DNA of 64,000 nucleotides from Nitrosopumilus sp. (lineage in GTDB: Archaea > Thermoproteota > Nitrososphaeria > Nitrososphaerales > Nitrosopumilaceae). The first letter of the stretch is position 1. Each line of letters opens with the position of its first letter. The DNA lies in the NCBI GenBank assembly GCA_965207075.1, contig CBDBLO010000002.1, positions 1,280,001 through 1,344,000 of the forward strand, in the 5' to 3' direction. The notes under the pieces are model-generated. The model ran no database searches, was not told the DNA's origin, and saw only the letters and a list, made by a program, of their open reading frames with translations. The position numbers were made by a program, and so were the translations under genes. This document shows positions 34,665-57,801 of this stretch, piece after piece.

Positions 34665-36001
34665 TGTAGAGTCGGAAAATGATGTCACGGTGTGTCGTGA
34701 CATTGCTCCACGCATGCCTGGACTCCATATGAATTTTGAATTCCCGGTTCCGCTGGGCCAGCCCAAGCGGCCGGCAGCGTGCCCGACGTGCGCGAACTGC
34801 CGCGAAAGGTACGCTTTTACATGATCGTGCGCAGCATACGCTGGAGGGTCCTACGGCGGGGTTGACTGAGGTGTCTTACCCGTCGTCATCCTTGTATGAC
34901 CGGCCCTCTGGGAGCCTCCGCTCGCGGTATGCGTCCGCGGGCGTCTGCCCGTACAGGCTGCCGTGCGGCTTGTTGTTGTGGTTCCTGACGAACCTGGCAG
35001 TCGGGTCGCTCTCCATTGCGGCGGGGGCGCCAAACGGGGCCGCCGTGCCCGGCGGTCCCGCAACGTCGGCAAAGTGCCCGACCTTGTACTTGTACTCCTT
35101 GAACACGCGCTCCGCCTTGCCATTGGTCTGGGGATGCCCCACGCGCGCCAGGATCTGCTTTACGCCGGCGTCCCCGAGGTGCTCCTCAAAGTGCGTGCGC
35201 CCCCTTTCGCGCTTTGCCTCGGACTCCATGGCGTAGAACTGGGATCCGTGGTCGGTCAGGACCGAGTACGGCGTCCCGTGCGCCAGGCAGGCCTGCTTGA
35301 AGACCGCGGTGGCGTTCTCGGACGTGGCGCGGTCAAACACGCCGTGTCCGACGATGTACCGGGACGAGTCGTCCACGTATACGATCAGCCACCTCCCGTC
35401 CTCCAGCTGCGTATAGTCCGCGTGCCAGAGCGTGTTGCTGTGCCTCCGCTCGTACCTCACGTACCTGCGCTGCCTCTTCTTGGCGCGCTCCTCGCGCGCC
35501 AGCCCGTTCTCAAGCAGCACCCGGTGCACTACATCCTTTGGGACGTGGTCCCCCGCGTTCCTGATGTGCCAGTATGTGGCAGACGCGCCGTTTACGACCC
35601 GGCCGAACGCGGCCAAAACCGCGGAGTGCTCCCTGCGCCCCGGCTCGCCCTTCCGGTGCCTGCCGGGGCGCCTTGGAAGGTACAGTATCCGCCCCGTGTC
35701 GAGGCGCCTGAACCGGCTCCAGATGCGCTGCACCTGCCTTATGCAGACCTTCAGGATGCCTGCAATCGTCTTGTTGCTTGTCCCCCTCCTCTTTTCGCGG
35801 ACGATGAACCTTGCGTCAAGCGTGTCCAGCTTGCGTATGGGCTTCCTGCCCTTCTCGCTGGCGGTCTTGAGTATGCGCTCGGTCTCCTCCCTTTGTTCCT
35901 GTATGAGGACATGTTCGTCATACTTGGTTTGAGGTGTCATTACGCCTCCCTCCATGTCGGCTCTCTTATGCGTCGGGGTGACATGATTCCCCGACTCTTC
36001 A
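34665..36001 (-). mobile_element. IS481-family insertion sequence, copy 1 (1337 bp)
   Basis: Imperfect ~24-bp TIRs TGAAGAGTCGGGGAATCATGTCAC / TGTAGAGTCGGAAAATGATGTCAC; 15-bp TSD TGCAGCCAAAAACGG at 34650-34664 and 36002-36016. Confidence 0.95.
34876..35940 (-). CDS. IS481-family transposase (HTH + rve integrase core)
   Basis: WHADYT, LTDHGSQF, PQTNGKAERVF DDE triad; ATG preceded by GGAGG. Confidence 0.92.
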   Translation of the reverse strand: MTPQTKYDEHVLIQEQREETERILKTASEKGRKPIRKLDTLDARFIVREKRRGTSNKTIAGILKVCIRQVQRIWSRFRRLDTGRILYLPRRPGRHRKGEPGRREHSAVLAAFGRVVNGASATYWHIRNAGDHVPKDVVHRVLLENGLAREERAKKRQRRYVRYERRHSNTLWHADYTQLEDGRWLIVYVDDSSRYIVGHGVFDRATSENATAVFKQACLAHGTPYSVLTDHGSQFYAMESEAKRERGRTHFEEHLGDAGVKQILARVGHPQTNGKAERVFKEYKYKVGHFADVAGPPGTAAPFGAPAAMESDPTARFVRNHNNKPHGSLYGQTPADAYRERRLPEGRSYKDDDG

Positions 36002-40585: not shown

Positions 40586-41905
40586 TCACAGACCTATGCG
40601 GTAATAGTCCCATCTCTCGGGATCAAACCGGGCCACGAACTCGGCCTCCTCCTTGCTCACCCTGGCGCTGACCACGTCCCGCAGCGCAAAGCTTGTGAGG
40701 TATGTGTATTTCTTGGCGCTCGCCTGCATGATGAACATGTTGCGCATGCCGCTTCCGCCTCCCAGCCCCCAGTACCCTATGCTGAGTCCCATTGGCTCCA
40801 GGAATATGGTGTTGGACATGCCGTGGTTCTCGTCGCGTATCTCCTCTCTGAGCTTGTATCTCTCAAGCGGCCCGCCCTTTGCATACCCGACAATCTTGCC
40901 GTTCCGGCCGTTTACGCGCAGCGTGGTCAGTACGGTGCCCGGATCCATCACAGACTCGCCAAACGCAGCGTGCTTGAACTGGAGCGGGGAGGGCAGCTGC
41001 TCAAATATGTTGTACAGCGTGCTGATAAACTCTGGATCGGTCCTGGTGTTTATTGACTCGATTGTCGGTATCAGCTTTAGGTTCTCGTACGCGTGTTCGG
41101 CCTGTATTGTAATCTCTTCCTGCCTGGTCTGGAAGAACGACAGCACTGTGCTGTAAAAGTTCTTTCTCATCTGGTTTGGAAGTATCTGCATTATGGCCCC
41201 TATCATGTCGTCCTCGTTATTCAGCAGGTCCTCAAAGTACGTGACCGCCCTGCGCACTATCAGCGAGGGGCTCCATCCAAGGGCGTGGGCGTTCATCTTT
41301 GCCATCTCCATGGCCTTTGCAAAGTCGCCCAGGGCGTATCCGCTCATGCGGTCAACGACGGACAGGTACCTGCCCATCTCCATCACGTGACTCCTGAATT
41401 CCTGGTCGTCCCTGGCCATGTCGGAGCGCTCAAAGCACTGGAGCGCCCTCTCTTCTGCACTTTTCCTCATCTCGCCGTCCCAAGGATACGTGGTGCGCAG
41501 TATCAGCACCTTTACAATCTCAAAGTCTATTCCGGCCGCCCTGATCTGTTTCTGCAGGTTCTCGTCTCTGGATATGAAGTTCAGAACGCTCTCCTCGTGC
41601 GGCTTGTCCACGTTCTTTAGCGGATCCAGGTCGTGAAAGAGCGCCGCGACATACAGGTGCTCTATGTCGCTCTGCGTAATGTCGATCCTGTCCTGATCCA
41701 TGGCAAGCAGGGTCATGTACGTGACCTCCAGCTCGTGCCTGATGTTGTGGTATCCGTAGTATTTGGTGCCAAGCCCCTTGGTCTCAAAGAGGTTTATCGT
41801 ATAGTCTAGCATCTCCCTGTAGCATTCCTTATCGATGCCGCGCCGCCTCATAAGGTCCAGTATTGTCTCCTTTGTTGCGTGCGTGTATGCTGCAGTCACC
41901 TGCAT
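40586..41905 (-). CDS. HD-domain protein with GNAT-like C-terminus
   Basis: YHNIRHELEV...AALFHD; start reassigned to MQVTAA. Confidence 0.75.
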   Translation of the reverse strand: MQVTAAYTHATKETILDLMRRRGIDKECYREMLDYTINLFETKGLGTKYYGYHNIRHELEVTYMTLLAMDQDRIDITQSDIEHLYVAALFHDLDPLKNVDKPHEESVLNFISRDENLQKQIRAAGIDFEIVKVLILRTTYPWDGEMRKSAEERALQCFERSDMARDDQEFRSHVMEMGRYLSVVDRMSGYALGDFAKAMEMAKMNAHALGWSPSLIVRRAVTYFEDLLNNEDDMIGAIMQILPNQMRKNFYSTVLSFFQTRQEEITIQAEHAYENLKLIPTIESINTRTDPEFISTLYNIFEQLPSPLQFKHAAFGESVMDPGTVLTTLRVNGRNGKIVGYAKGGPLERYKLREEIRDENHGMSNTIFLEPMGLSIGYWGLGGGSGMRNMFIMQASAKKYTYLTSFALRDVVSARVSKEEAEFVARFDPERWDYYRIGL

Positions 41906-42235
41906 ATCATATTGGTTTCGTGGCGTGCTTTTAAAGATCACCGCGCACGGCCGGGGGCGACGGCCGTGCGCGAATGCCCGTATGGCTGCTCCGCTTGGCG
42001 GCTGTGCGACAGGCGTGGCTCTGGGCTGCACACGGCCGGGCGACTGCGGGGTCTGGGCGCGAAGGGCGGTTTTTTTACCGGAGACTGGGCGCGGCTGGCC
42101 GATTAACCGAGCTTGACACACAAGCCTCTCTTTGACATCATAGTAGATCACGGGGCGCCGCATGAACAAGGTTGGGAATCATATAGTCAAGTAAACAACC
42201 ACAATCAATATACCGTACTCTGCCGTATGTAACGC

Positions 42236-43654
42236 GTGTTCACCTACAGAAAGTACCGCGTGCCCGTGAGGCTGACCACGGAGGAAGAGTCAGAGATATT
42301 GAGACTCCGCGACGCGCAGCGCCAGGCATACAACTGGGCCGTGAAACGCCTCAAGTCAGGGTGGAGTACTGGCAGCGAGTATGACATGCAAAAGCTGCAT
42401 ACGGTAGAGAGGCGCACATTCCCGTGGATGGGGGAGGCGCCCGCGGCCGTACAGAGGGCCGGCATCCGCGACGCGTTTACGGCGGCCAAAATGTCCGTCA
42501 GGCGCGGGCGTGGTATAGGAGACGGCCTGAAATACAGGTCGAGGAAGCGCGGGGGGCGCGGGCCGCTCAGGTGCGGGCTACCTCCCGTAGTGGTGGGCGG
42601 ACGTAAGATCAAGCTGCCGCGCTTCGGCACGGTTGAATGCCGAGGCCCCGTGCTAGACAAGCTGCTGGAGCACGAGCCCCGGTCGTACGAGTTTGTTGAC
42701 ATGTCACAGTCCAAAGACGGCAGGAATCCCCGGTACGTACTGTACGTGTCCTGCAGGGTGCGCGTGCCGGAGTCGTGGAACTCGCCGGCATCTGCGGCAG
42801 CCGCGGCCGCTGTCGCGCCGCCAAGGCGCGCCACCAAGGGCATCGACCGTGGAGTGGTGGAACCGACCGTGGTGGCAGCGCTGGATCCGCACGGAGAGGC
42901 CGTGGATAAGACGTCGTACGACACGGCCTCCCCGTTCAGGGAGAACCGCAGCTGGTACCAACGGCGGCAGCGCAGGATGTCCAATATGAACCCGCGTTCG
43001 GGCAGGTTCCAAAGACTGCGGCGCAGGATGCGCAAAAGAATGCAGAAGGTGGCGAACCGCCGGACGTACGCGGAGTGCGTCGCGGCCAAGCACGTGTGCG
43101 ACGACCACGCCCCGCACACCATAGTGTTTGAGGGCCTCAGGCTCGGGGAGATGACACGGAGGGGAAGGGGACAGTACAAGAAGGGCTTGAACCGCGAGAT
43201 GAGGTTCGTGCGCCATTCTGTGATAGAACAGAGAGTGCGCAACCGCGCGGAACTGACGGGTATCCGCGTCATCACGGTGGATCCCGGATATACGTCTCAG
43301 GAGTGCGCGCGGTGCAGGCACGTTGCAAAGAAGTCCCGTGTAACGAGGGACATGTTCAAGTGCGTCAGATGTCATTACATTCAACAGGCGGACATCAATG
43401 CCGCCATGGTAATCGGGAGACTCGGCCTGCCAACCGTTCCCGATACAGTGCATGAGGCAGGCCCTCCGGAGGTCGGAATGCCCTTCGTGAGACGCGAACT
43501 GGATGCGCGCCTCAACTGCTTCACCGAGGCGGTCGGGGGCGTCAACGGACGGCGCGACAACCAAGCGCCGGCGCATCACCTTGCCAAAGGCATGGAGAAA
43601 GAACGTCGCAAAGTATCAAAGGATGGAGGGCCGCGCAGGCGGCAACTCACCTAA
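42236..43654 (+). CDS. tnpB: TnpB RNA-guided endonuclease
   Basis: N-terminal HTH (QRQAYNWA), RuvC-I GIDRG, RuvC-II VFEGL, Zn finger CARC/CVRC after YTSQ, RuvC-III ADINAA. Confidence 0.93.
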   Translation: MFTYRKYRVPVRLTTEEESEILRLRDAQRQAYNWAVKRLKSGWSTGSEYDMQKLHTVERRTFPWMGEAPAAVQRAGIRDAFTAAKMSVRRGRGIGDGLKYRSRKRGGRGPLRCGLPPVVVGGRKIKLPRFGTVECRGPVLDKLLEHEPRSYEFVDMSQSKDGRNPRYVLYVSCRVRVPESWNSPASAAAAAAVAPPRRATKGIDRGVVEPTVVAALDPHGEAVDKTSYDTASPFRENRSWYQRRQRRMSNMNPRSGRFQRLRRRMRKRMQKVANRRTYAECVAAKHVCDDHAPHTIVFEGLRLGEMTRRGRGQYKKGLNREMRFVRHSVIEQRVRNRAELTGIRVITVDPGYTSQECARCRHVAKKSRVTRDMFKCVRCHYIQQADINAAMVIGRLGLPTVPDTVHEAGPPEVGMPFVRRELDARLNCFTEAVGGVNGRRDNQAPAHHLAKGMEKERRKVSKDGGPRRRQLT

Positions 43655-43667
43655 GTATATAATTCCC
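43440..43667 (+). ncRNA. Putative omegaRNA scaffold overlapping the tnpB 3' end
   Basis: Nested helices 43502-43508/43571-43577, 43508-43513/43526-43531, 43551-43555/43565-43569 under a low-conservation C-terminal tail; 5' boundary is a guess. Confidence 0.5.
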
Positions 43668-43703
43668 ACAAGGTTCAATACTCCTGGTCTTGAACGGATC
43701 CGC

Positions 43704-44240
43704 ATGGGCGGGGAGGATAACCACACGCGCGGCGCCAAGCAGAATAGCATCCTGCAACTGCGCACCGAGTTGTCAAACCTTGCCTCCCTGGGCTCTTTTG
43801 AGTTTGTCGCACGCTTTGGCGGCGATGCCGACGACGGGCCCGCCACGTACGTCCTGCGCGACGTGACTGTAAGCGGGCCGCCTCCCGAACGGGACGTCCC
43901 GGCGCGCGGTTCTGGGGGGGACAACCGGACCTATTTCACGAAGAGCCCGATATGCCGCATAAACTGTTCTGCGCGCGATGTATCCATACTTGATGAGATC
44001 ACGCCCAGGATGCTGGGGCCCGGAACGGACTTTGCGGCAGTGCGGGTGGACATCCGTGCTGAGTCCGGAGGCGTGACGGCCAGCCTTGTAGCAAACGTTA
44101 CGGGCAGTGTGGAGGAGCCGTCGGAGTCGCGCGTGCAGCTCGTACTTGTGGTGGTGGATGTGGTAGATCCTCGGCTCGGCTCCAGCATGGGGCGCGACGA
44201 GCTGCAGAATATTTCCAAAACAGGGCCGAAAAACCCCTGA
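43704..44240 (+). CDS. Hypothetical protein
   Basis: ATG 43704 in the 245-aa ORF; beta-rich composition. Confidence 0.6.
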   Translation: MGGEDNHTRGAKQNSILQLRTELSNLASLGSFEFVARFGGDADDGPATYVLRDVTVSGPPPERDVPARGSGGDNRTYFTKSPICRINCSARDVSILDEITPRMLGPGTDFAAVRVDIRAESGGVTASLVANVTGSVEEPSESRVQLVLVVVDVVDPRLGSSMGRDELQNISKTGPKNP

Positions 44241-56464: not shown

Positions 56465-57801
56465 TGAAGAGTCGGGGAATCATGTCACCCCGACGCATAA
56501 GAGAGCCGACATGGAGGGAGGCGTAATGACACCTCAAACCAAGTATGACGAACATGTCCTCATACAGGAACAAAGGGAGGAGACCGAGCGCATACTCAAG
56601 ACCGCCAGCGAGAAGGGCAGGAAGCCCATACGCAAGCTGGACACGCTTGACGCAAGGTTCATCGTCCGCGAAAAGAGGAGGGGGACAAGCAACAAGACGA
56701 TTGCAGGCATCCTGAAGGTCTGCATAAGGCAGGTGCAGCGCATCTGGAGCCGGTTCAGGCGCCTCGACACGGGGCGGATACTGTACCTTCCAAGGCGCCC
56801 CGGCAGGCACCGGAAGGGCGAGCCGGGGCGCAGGGAGCACTCCGCGGTTTTGGCCGCGTTCGGCCGGGTCGTAAACGGCGCGTCTGCCACATACTGGCAC
56901 ATCAGGAACGCGGGGGACCACGTCCCAAAGGACGCCGTGCACCGGGTGCTGCTTGAGAACGGGCTGGCGCGCGAGGAGCACGCCAAGAAGAGGCAGCGCA
57001 GGTACGTGAGGTACGAGCGGAGGCACAGCAACACGCTCTGGCACACGGACTATACGCAGCTGGAGGACGGGAGGTGGCTGATCGTATACGTGGACGACTC
57101 GTCCCGGTACATCGTCGGACACGGCGTGTTTGACCGCGCCACGTCCGAGAACGCCACCGCGGTCTTCAAGCAGGCCTGCCTGGCGCACGGGACGCCGTAC
57201 TCGGTCCTGACCGACCACGGATCCCAGTTCTACGCCATGGAGTCCGAGGCAAAGCGCGAAAGGGGGCGCACGCACTTTGAGGAGCACCTCGGGGACGCCG
57301 GCGTAAAGCAGATCCTGGCGCGCGTGGGGCATCCCCAGACCAATGGCAAGGCGGAGCGCGTGTTCAAGGAGTACAAGTACAAGGTGGGGCACTTTGCCGA
57401 CGTTGCGGGACCGCCGGGCACGGCGGCCCCGTTTGGCGCCCCCGCCGCAATGGAGAGCGACCCGACTGCCAGGTTCGTCAGGAACCACAACAACAAGCCG
57501 CACGGCAGCCTGTACGGGCAGACGCCCGCGGACGCATACCGCGAGCGGAGGCTCCCAGAGGGCCGGTCATACAAGGATGACGACGGGTAAGACACCTCAG
57601 TCAACCCCGCCGTAGGACCCTCCAGCGTATGCTGCGCACGATCATGTAAAAGCGTACCTTTCGCGGCAGTTCGCGCACGTCGGGCACGCTGCCGGCCGCT
57701 TGGGCTGGCCCAGCGGAACCGGGAATTCAAAATTCATATGGAGTCCAGGCATGCGTGGAGCAATGTCACGACACACCGTGACATCATTTTCCGACTCTAC
57801 A
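56465..57801 (+). mobile_element. IS481-family insertion sequence, copy 2 (1337 bp)
   Basis: Same TIRs as copy 1; 15-bp TSD GTTTCTGGCCCTGAC at 56450-56464 and 57802-57816. Confidence 0.95.
56526..57590 (+). CDS. IS481-family transposase
   Basis: Differs from copy 1 at three visible residues (V/A, R/H, A/T); DDE intact. Confidence 0.92.
   Translation: MTPQTKYDEHVLIQEQREETERILKTASEKGRKPIRKLDTLDARFIVREKRRGTSNKTIAGILKVCIRQVQRIWSRFRRLDTGRILYLPRRPGRHRKGEPGRREHSAVLAAFGRVVNGASATYWHIRNAGDHVPKDAVHRVLLENGLAREEHAKKRQRRYVRYERRHSNTLWHTDYTQLEDGRWLIVYVDDSSRYIVGHGVFDRATSENATAVFKQACLAHGTPYSVLTDHGSQFYAMESEAKRERGRTHFEEHLGDAGVKQILARVGHPQTNGKAERVFKEYKYKVGHFADVAGPPGTAAPFGAPAAMESDPTARFVRNHNNKPHGSLYGQTPADAYRERRLPEGRSYKDDDG

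Follow-up and report, generated by a model that had tools for sequence, protein, structure and literature searches.

In ISDra2 the nuclease TnpB works with a guide RNA (omegaRNA) that overlaps the 3′ end of its gene, ends at the right boundary of the transposon and takes its guide from the flank; according to passages of PMC10097598, nucleotides -5 to -3 of this RNA pair with -103 to -105 – a short pseudoknot made by the last scaffold nucleotides, with one base between it and the guide – and a guide-adjacent pseudoknot is conserved in Cas12 guide RNAs. The carrier of ISDra2 has no terminal inverted repeats (TIRs), makes no target duplication and uses a Y1 TnpA transposase. In passages of PMC13565253 the same two absences are reported for IS605/IS607 elements, and the IS200/IS605 elements (IS1341 group) are defined by lack of TIRs and of a duplication, by subterminal hairpins and by insertion 3′ of a fixed motif of 4-5 nucleotides. 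TnpB is also known from within symmetrical inverted ends: excerpts of Altae-Tran et al. (2023; PMC10691335) describe six TnpB branches that are associated with DDE transposases and bounded by inverted terminal repeats, TnpB having its 3′ end no more than 250 bp from the end of the transposon. Solo TnpB elements are described there too; their ends are those of relatives with a transposase, and their mobilisation is presumed to occur in trans. Eukaryotic Fanzor1 likewise resides in TIR transposons, and the Fanzor guide RNA overlaps the TIR (PMC10530073, in part).

The locus described here lies in a 64,000-nucleotide stretch of Nitrosopumilus sp. DNA (assembly GCA_965207075.1, contig CBDBLO010000002.1, positions 1,280,001 to 1,344,000 of the forward strand), called the window and numbered from its first letter. 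Positions 42174-43667 of the window are a 1,494-bp element with one intact tnpB, imperfect TIRs and a perfect 8-bp target-site duplication, ACAAGGTT: a non-autonomous DDE-type transposon without a transposase of its own, whose sole cargo is tnpB and its predicted omegaRNA. Since DDE-associated TnpB branches and the Fanzor overlap precede it in the excerpts cited, the kind is already known; new relative to those excerpts are the carriers (IS1595-like and IS6-like), the swapping of end types inside a single TnpB clade, and a pseudoknot in which the TIR tip covaries with its partner. The parts of the element are as follows.

42166..42173, + strand: left target-site duplication, ACAAGGTT, a single copy in the empty sites of two related genomes
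42174..42191, + strand: left TIR, GGGAATCATATAGTCAAG, of the IS1595-family type of related archaea; near-identical ends flank IS1595-family DDE genes in related metagenome-assembled genomes (MAGs)
42236..43654, + strand: tnpB open reading frame (ORF), 472 amino acids, GTG start; the stop TAA falls within the right TIR
43651..43667, + strand: right TIR, CTAAGTATATAATTCCC; ATTCC at 43662-43666 is the predicted 3′ strand of the pseudoknot, and 43667 the probable scaffold end
43668-43675, + strand: right copy of the duplication, ACAAGGTT, adjoining the right TIR
43668..43687, + strand: predicted guide, the right ACAAGGTT plus flank, ACAAGGTTCAATACTCCTGG, placed by the pseudoknot position (guide length in ISDra2, 16 nucleotides)

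The predicted omegaRNA scaffold and pseudoknot at the TIR tip

The window's genome (G000, the window's own copy being A) holds seven full-length tnpB copies with protein identities of 52-56%; copies D and E sit in a diverged duplicated stretch and are counted as a single insertion. Further copies were drawn from three Nitrosopumilaceae MAG records and one metagenome (L-numbers denote loci in other records or in the genome), and a distant tnpB clade, only 34-37% identical, was found in G063 and G043. Fourteen copies were aligned as RNA, from about 45 nucleotides upstream of the conserved CGCGAACTGGA block to 25 nucleotides past the element. Left out were E (the same as D), L038 (nearly the same as C and L039), L045, L046 and L047 (masked by stretches of N), L051 and L056 (N-terminal pieces only) and L053 (right end unalignable).

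From this comparison the last ~190 nucleotides of the element are predicted to be a conserved RNA structure overlapping the 3′ end of tnpB. The RNAalifold consensus has seven helices and 35 pairs, 17 of which keep pairing through two-sided changes (2-4 when partners are slid by 1-3 columns). Paired cells amount to 96.4%, as against 42-50% after sliding, and none of 500 shuffles scores as high; a point against these figures is that one alignment served both to derive and to test the structure and so favours it somewhat, although the margin is large. The compensatory changes point to selection on the RNA during divergence of the family. The helices and domains, in window coordinates, are these.

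43468-72 / 43482-86, + strand: H1 (GGAGG/CCTTC), hairpin 43468..43486, whose loop holds GGAAT at 43475-43479, the predicted 5′ strand of the pseudoknot
43491-94 / 43604-07, + strand: P1 (GACG/CGTC), closing the core
43502-08 / 43571-77, + strand: P2 (GATGCGC/GCGCATC), from the consensus fold
43510-16 / 43532-38, + strand: P3, CGCCTC/GAGGCG with a slightly shifted partner
43540-43 / 43548-51, + strand: P4, from the consensus fold
43552-55 / 43565-68, + strand: P5 (GGCGC/GCGCC), from the consensus fold
43579-85 / 43589-95, + strand: P6, from the consensus fold
43491..43607, + strand: scaffold core, P1 enclosing P2 to P6, with the invariant GGAGAAAGAACGTC at 43594-43607
43608..43650, + strand: variable 3′ hairpin domain, GCCGC-GCAG-GCGGC plus an outer stem, from the folds of 14 copies

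A first-pass annotation, made from the letters of the window alone, had seen the helices P2, P3 and P5 and proposed an omegaRNA overlapping the ORF; all three helices are present and are kept in the consensus, and the two-sided changes bear out both the overlap and the covariation among homologues that it had looked to. Its further claim, that the last ~75 codons are non-conserved, holds in part: the region is not uniformly so, since V418, R419, R420, E421, L422, D423, R425 and F429 are invariant among six paralogues. Identical codons occupy two of the four invariant columns in codons 401-472 and two of 69 in codons 1-400, counts too small to carry weight. Scanned against Rfam by E-value, 41900-44000 matched no credible family (best match a miRNA model, 25 bits against a cut-off of 77.5).

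Beyond the invariant GGAGAAAGAACGTC each of the 14 folded copies has a hairpin, with a different sequence each time. In most copies the inner part of the TIR contributes to an outer stem, and in most a tail of 6-8 nucleotides stays unpaired (C differs). Duplexes between a copy's own arm and TIR beat cross pairings (permutation p 0.0003), a comparison confounded by windows that include the inner hairpin arms and thus weak support only.

The tip of the right TIR is complementary to a motif in the H1 loop just 5′ of the CCYTCG anchor, ~190 nucleotides upstream: 11 of 12 elements have 5-6 contiguous Watson-Crick pairs, as do five more distant copies (L048-L050, L052 and L016). The helix involves the last 5-8 nucleotides and ends 0-2 nucleotides from the element boundary. 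Upstream motif and TIR tip change together, in the following combinations.

A, D, L040: upstream motif GGAAT, TIR tip ATTCC
B, C, L041, L042, L043, L054: upstream motif GGAAC, TIR tip GTTCC
F, G: upstream motif GGTTGG, TIR tip CCAACC
L048-50 (distant clade): upstream motif GGAACT, TIR tip AGTTCC
L052, L016 (distant clade): upstream motif GGAATT, TIR tip AATTCC

A scripted recount found the pairing in 12 of 14 copies, with copy F mis-anchored; pairings of motif and tail across types reach 5 bp in 9 of 120 cases. In a quick maximum-likelihood tree of TnpB, with supports from the Shimodaira-Hasegawa approximate likelihood ratio test (SH-aLRT), A is sister to L041+L054 (98) and D/L040 group with L042 (99). 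Given these positions, the T:A state arose, or came in with new ends, at least twice; together with the F/G pair and the switch within the distant clade this brings the separate compensatory events to at least four. Because the C-to-T change in the upstream motif replaces Thr by Met, it speaks for selection acting on the RNA. In addition, all six lineages with IS6-like ends (B, C, L039, L041, L042, L047/L054) share the right tip GGAAC, whereas their left tips differ (GGTG, GGCT, GGTT, GGTA), as expected where only the right tip must also fold. Pairing of the tip with GAACTGG (14 nucleotides 3′ of the anchor) or with AACTGC occurs only in elements ending CAGTTCC, and neither was retained as the conserved partner. 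L045, L046 and L047 have stretches of N over the 5′ part of the scaffold, which in L046, at 74% identity the closest relative of the window's element, mask the upstream motif.

This covarying pseudoknot matches the ISDra2 arrangement, and on that ground the scaffold probably runs through the right TIR to 43667, the guide beginning at 43668 with the duplication and continuing into the flank, so that it would change with every insertion. Of the two boundaries that the first-pass annotation had left open, this is the one the TIR-tip pairing favours.

Insertion sites, copies and the tnpB gene

The two TIRs of the window element are 80% complementary across 20 nucleotides and differ at three of 16 positions (by eye). 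Two related genomes, with right flanks 89% (G061) and 81% (G062) identical to the window, read ...GCATGC followed by ACAAGGTTCAATACTCC, with a single ACAAGGTT and no element. Since the duplication is perfect and the empty sites have it once, insertion and duplication are real, as is the empty site that had been deduced from the window alone; the insertion is younger than the split from these relatives. Contigs of four DNA runs span both junctions of the element and contain no empty-site joint, the joints listed being cross-matches to paralogues.

Throughout the family, every copy with both ends has TIRs (17-30 bp). Perfect 8-bp duplications occur at seven of the 11 main-clade sites with both flanks (A, B, F, G with 8 or 9 bp, L039, L041, L042) and imperfect ones at D/E (six of eight positions) and L040 (seven of eight); C/L038 and L047 have no target-site duplication. 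In the distant clade L049, L050 and L016 have perfect duplications. Near-identical copies at different sites (L038/L039, L045/L054, L048/L049/L050, F/G) part exactly past the last TIR base: the tnpB elements are mobile units whose boundary is that base.

The encoded protein belongs to the TnpB/OMEGA nucleases, as judged from its RuvC core, zinc ribbon, and retained Asp-Glu-Asp and CxxC...CxxC. Pfam matches are OrfB_IS605 (PF01385, 32.5 bits, cut-off 30.5) and Cas12f1-like_TNB (PF07282, 58.1 bits), and the family profile matches ISDra2 TnpB (8h1j, 8exa; residues 7-382) as well as solved Cas12f chains. D204, E299, D386, C357, C360, C376 and C379 are invariant among six paralogues; the QADINAA motif aligns with the RuvC-III motif of solved homologues, and D204 and E299 we take, by motif position, to be catalytic. 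All seven genomic copies have full-length ORFs whose nuclease looks intact.

Several observations were made beside these. Directly upstream of the tnpB start (window 42200-42235), and likewise in copies D, F and G, an AT-rich box precedes a short palindrome (ATATAAC-GGTA...TACCGT); this could be a promoter or a binding site at the left end. An eighth, fragmentary tnpB (C2:1472449-1472769, N-terminal 112 amino acids, 43% identity) has a 57-nucleotide match to the scaffold core at 1472415-1472474. Different family members occupy an identical site in different genomes: copy C (C2:639557-641070 of G000), L038 and L047 (proteins roughly 55-60% identical, TIR types different, no clean duplication in any) have the common left flank ...GACTTGTGAG.AAC and the common right flank TCAATAAGAGATAAAAGAG, and L054 has the left flank of L047 with another right flank. 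This could reflect element replacement or recombination, or re-use of the site.

At C2:2166100-2168240 (L185) of G000 there is a diverged second copy of the copy-F region with an empty F site, ...GCGATGT GGCCAAAG ACTAAC, the duplication being present once; a 2-kb insert adjoining it ends ...CTATAATTCCC and contains a 1,038-bp insertion sequence (IS) of the rve type. Long collinear stretches of 80-99% identity occur in the assembly (C2:2155000-2180000 vs C2:8000-33000; C1 vs C2:37000-87000); these, including the tnpB pair D/E, would be either true duplications or two co-assembled strain variants. The left end of the F/G type has two tandem TIR copies 35 bp apart (C2:58954-59006 in G, C2:19497-19545 in F), and the duplication of G abuts the outer one. 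A scan of genome contigs with a 19-nucleotide conserved motif returned mostly chance matches in GC-rich bacteria and no additional family members.

IS1595-like and IS6-like carriers

The annotation had likened a TCAC just before the right TIR to IS605-type right ends. Nothing supports this: TIRs in every copy, 8-bp duplications and the lack of a Y1 transposase (Y1 (HUH) TnpA, PF01797, 0 matches in the 95% complete genome of the window) rule out membership of IS200/IS605. The same features set the carrier apart from that of ISDra2, from which the locus further differs in that the pseudoknot's 3′ strand would double as the tip of a transposase-binding TIR, in its longer scaffold (~190-200 nucleotides from pseudoknot strand to end) and in having no fixed insertion motif to supply a target-adjacent motif (TAM).

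What the ends do resemble differs among copies. The window copy has the type GGGAATTATATA...AAGTAAAC. Among nine loci of related archaea that encode homologues of a DDE_Tnp_IS1595 fragment, ends of the type GGGRATTATATA...AAGTAAAC lie ~415 nucleotides upstream of the match in five and 547-827 nucleotides upstream in two more; at L198 one such end lies 3′ of the transposase gene. L200 is a complete element of 1,513 bp, with perfect 32-bp TIRs starting GGGGATTATATAC and an ORF with Zn_ribbon_IS1595 (PF12760) and DDE_Tnp_IS1595 (PF12762), no target duplication being seen; the TIR of L201 starts GGGGATTATATAGTTAAGTAAAC, that of the window element GGGAATCATATAGTCAAGTAAAC. The window element thus shares its ends with the IS1595 family (L200, related archaea) and its 8-bp duplication with the IS1595 copies of G063, but has no internal transposase, carries tnpB as cargo, and has the right tip GGGAAT rather than GGGGAT. 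The G063 copies were rejected as its end-matched partners because their own ends, CGCTCATATTCC, are different. Elements of the ISNwi1 subgroup presumably end ggnnatTAT with 8-bp repeats, for which no literature source was found. With tnpB alone inside and PF12762 giving 0 matches in G000, the window element can only be a trans-mobilised, passenger-carrying derivative.

Paralogues B, C, L041, L042 and L054 have TIRs of the GGnnCTGnTGCGAA type, also without an internal transposase. These resemble the IS6/IS26 family (the window copy does not) in their GG-initiated TIRs and 8-bp duplications: IS26 has the TIR GGCACTGTTGCAAA and an 8-bp duplication (PMC8477213, in part), and the IS240-DDE (IS6-family) elements of G063 end GGTTCCGTTGCAAAGTCGG... 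and GGTTCCTCCTGCAAGG..., all with 8-bp duplications. A third type, GGGGTTGGTACCAAATTC, found in F and G and beginning GGGGTTGGTACC..., has no partner among the elements compared. The DDE-associated branches in the excerpts of Altae-Tran et al. have IS630, ISL2 and IS1031 as named carriers, whereas here they are IS1595-like and IS6-like, in archaea of the Nitrosopumilaceae type. Among the matches listed in the TnpB literature the IS6 family is not named, and the papers that name both IS1595 and TnpB, judged by title and abstract, give no account of tnpB as cargo of IS1595 elements.

Candidates for a mobilising enzyme were sought in the window's genome. L057, its sole IS240-type ORF, has no matching TIR pair and only a lone GGTACTGGTGCAAATTC nearby. 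A multi-copy IS of the rve type has other ends (TCTATTATACGG...); three near-identical copies with helix-turn-helix and rve domains lie at C2:2166406-2167335, 1652843-1653772 and 541044-541973 of G000, with ends TCTATTATACGGAAAGT... and ...CTTTTCATATAATACA, one of the three with a clear 15-bp target duplication (r3). No such enzyme was thus identified in this genome, which has no IS1595 transposase and whose lone IS240-type ORF lacks matching ends. Two rve-type IS-like ORFs lie in the window itself (35062-35805, - strand; 56661-57404, + strand; tblastn, ~34% identity) and belong to a multi-copy genomic family. In G063 a type-1 TIR near the IS240 gene of L061 proved not to be the end of that gene: it belongs to a separate inverted-repeat remnant of ~220 bp (L061:419-641), with a GGGAATTATACAC end, which directly follows a tRNA-like 3′ end and has the look of a miniature element derived from the same TIR family.

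Alternatively, the RNA structure could be a relic, the copies being immobile, decaying or silent and without omegaRNA-guided activity in this genome. The missing IS1595-family transposase, by which the window copy may now be stranded, weighs against a working element, and a relic would also fit the finding that no RNA run is listed as containing the locus, the low identity of the paralogues, which makes most insertions old, and the degenerate or missing duplications of several copies. Yet in all seven copies the ORF is full length and its RuvC and zinc-finger residues are invariant, the compensatory changes date selection on the RNA to the time of family divergence, and the window insertion is younger than the split from relatives whose flanks are 81-89% identical: loss of activity is therefore unlikely.

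Predicted guide, candidate TAM and possible homing into empty alleles

Whether the guide is the flank depends on where the scaffold stops. The other boundary considered by the first-pass annotation ends the scaffold at ...AACTCAC(C), ~43650, and makes the right TIR (16-17 nucleotides, the guide length of ISDra2) a fixed guide aimed at ends of the family, its own right end included. Against the junction at 43667 stand the shortness of the pseudoknot helix (5-6 bp) and its one mismatch in L044, the sole miss among the 12 elements. An end at ~43650 would fit a second complement: in copy A, CTCAC just before the TIR complements GTGAG directly 5′ of P1, 5 bp that end one nucleotide before the TIR; and copy B has a matching pair, GTCAG:CTGAC, at both of the same places. 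But this complement, the only one found, has a counterpart in just two of nine lineages tested (A and B) and is missing in the other seven, including D and L040 with A's TIR type. In L046 the homologous bases lie within a 12-bp local stem, a test left incomplete by masking of the upstream part. Moreover, TIR length varies from 17 to 28 nucleotides among copies, the TIR tip covaries with the upstream motif as a scaffold helix does and a guide would not, and a fixed guide matching its own right end would be self-destructive: the TIR is very unlikely to be the guide.

With the junction at 43667, the omegaRNA would be read from the tnpB transcript, starting at or before ~43468, and would fold into H1, a six-helix core closed by GACG/CGTC, the variable 3′ hairpin and then the entire right TIR, whose ATTCC (43662-66) would pair back to GGAAT (43475-79) as the guide-adjacent pseudoknot common to TnpB and Cas12 guide RNAs. 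The guide would be copied from the duplicated target and right flank, each new insertion reprogramming it. Its sequence, ACAAGGTTCAATACTC..., occurs once in the window's genome, and both relatives have it uninterrupted in their empty alleles; each tnpB copy's guide, so defined, matches its own flank only. We infer that the ribonucleoprotein would cut insertion-free alleles, in which the target ACAAGGTTCAATACTC is preceded by left-flank sequence, and that recombination with the occupied copy would then convert the cut allele (homing). The occupied allele would be spared: its left junction matches just 8 nucleotides, and at its right junction the target is preceded by the TIR tip, not by flank. 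Homing into empty alleles is the functional reading we favour. Recruitment of TnpB by the host, perhaps to repress a neighbouring gene under RNA guidance with the flank guide as regulator, has a precedent in domesticated relatives (PMC10705468, in part) and would fit guides that match their own flank only, but is most improbable for copies with intact catalytic residues, bounded by TIRs and duplications at unrelated sites, and at a site that is empty in close relatives.

A TAM of about CATGA, as the annotation had suggested, is not established: the empty alleles read CATGC. TG stands within the last three nucleotides of the left flank at seven of 10 main-clade sites (A, B, the C site, F, L039, L041, L042; absent at D, G and L040), an enrichment with p 4.9e-5 for a pattern picked post hoc. 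The following points count against the explanation as a whole. TG is found at none of the four distant-clade sites; the left flanks of the 10 main-clade and four distant-clade sites give no clear TAM, one not being readable from flanks when the carriers insert at varied sites; and the usual rationale of 'restorative homing' is not directly applicable, since excision does not occur in IS6-kind DDE transposons. According to PMC8477213, IS26-type elements form cointegrates without excision, and a recent review argues, in the part cited, that restorative homing pays only for excising transposons (PMC13565253).

Taken together, these observations allow a reading that we put forward tentatively, at somewhat less than even chances: the tnpB-omegaRNA cassette may be a portable module that has moved among unrelated DDE frames within one archaeal lineage (IS1595-like, IS6-like and the GGGGTTGGTACC... 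type), its pseudoknot of 5-6 bp being re-tuned each time and the right TIR tip doubling as the guide-adjacent strand; it would act on empty alleles by gene-drive-like homing with a very short TAM (perhaps TG), and not as a 'restorer' in the manner of IS605/IS607. Prokaryotic DDE transposons with TnpB are rarely documented, and the family would yield compact archaeal TnpB-omegaRNA pairs with defined scaffolds. Should its carriers fail to leave resealed donor sites, the usual explanation of TnpB as a means to restore excised copies does not apply, and the family would become a natural test case for non-restorative homing with a relaxed TAM. As for the boundary, the answer would be a structural one: the pseudoknot would fix the junction of scaffold and guide at the last TIR base, placing one short sequence under two constraints – recognition by a transposase and folding of the guide RNA – and having it re-tuned whenever the carrier changes.

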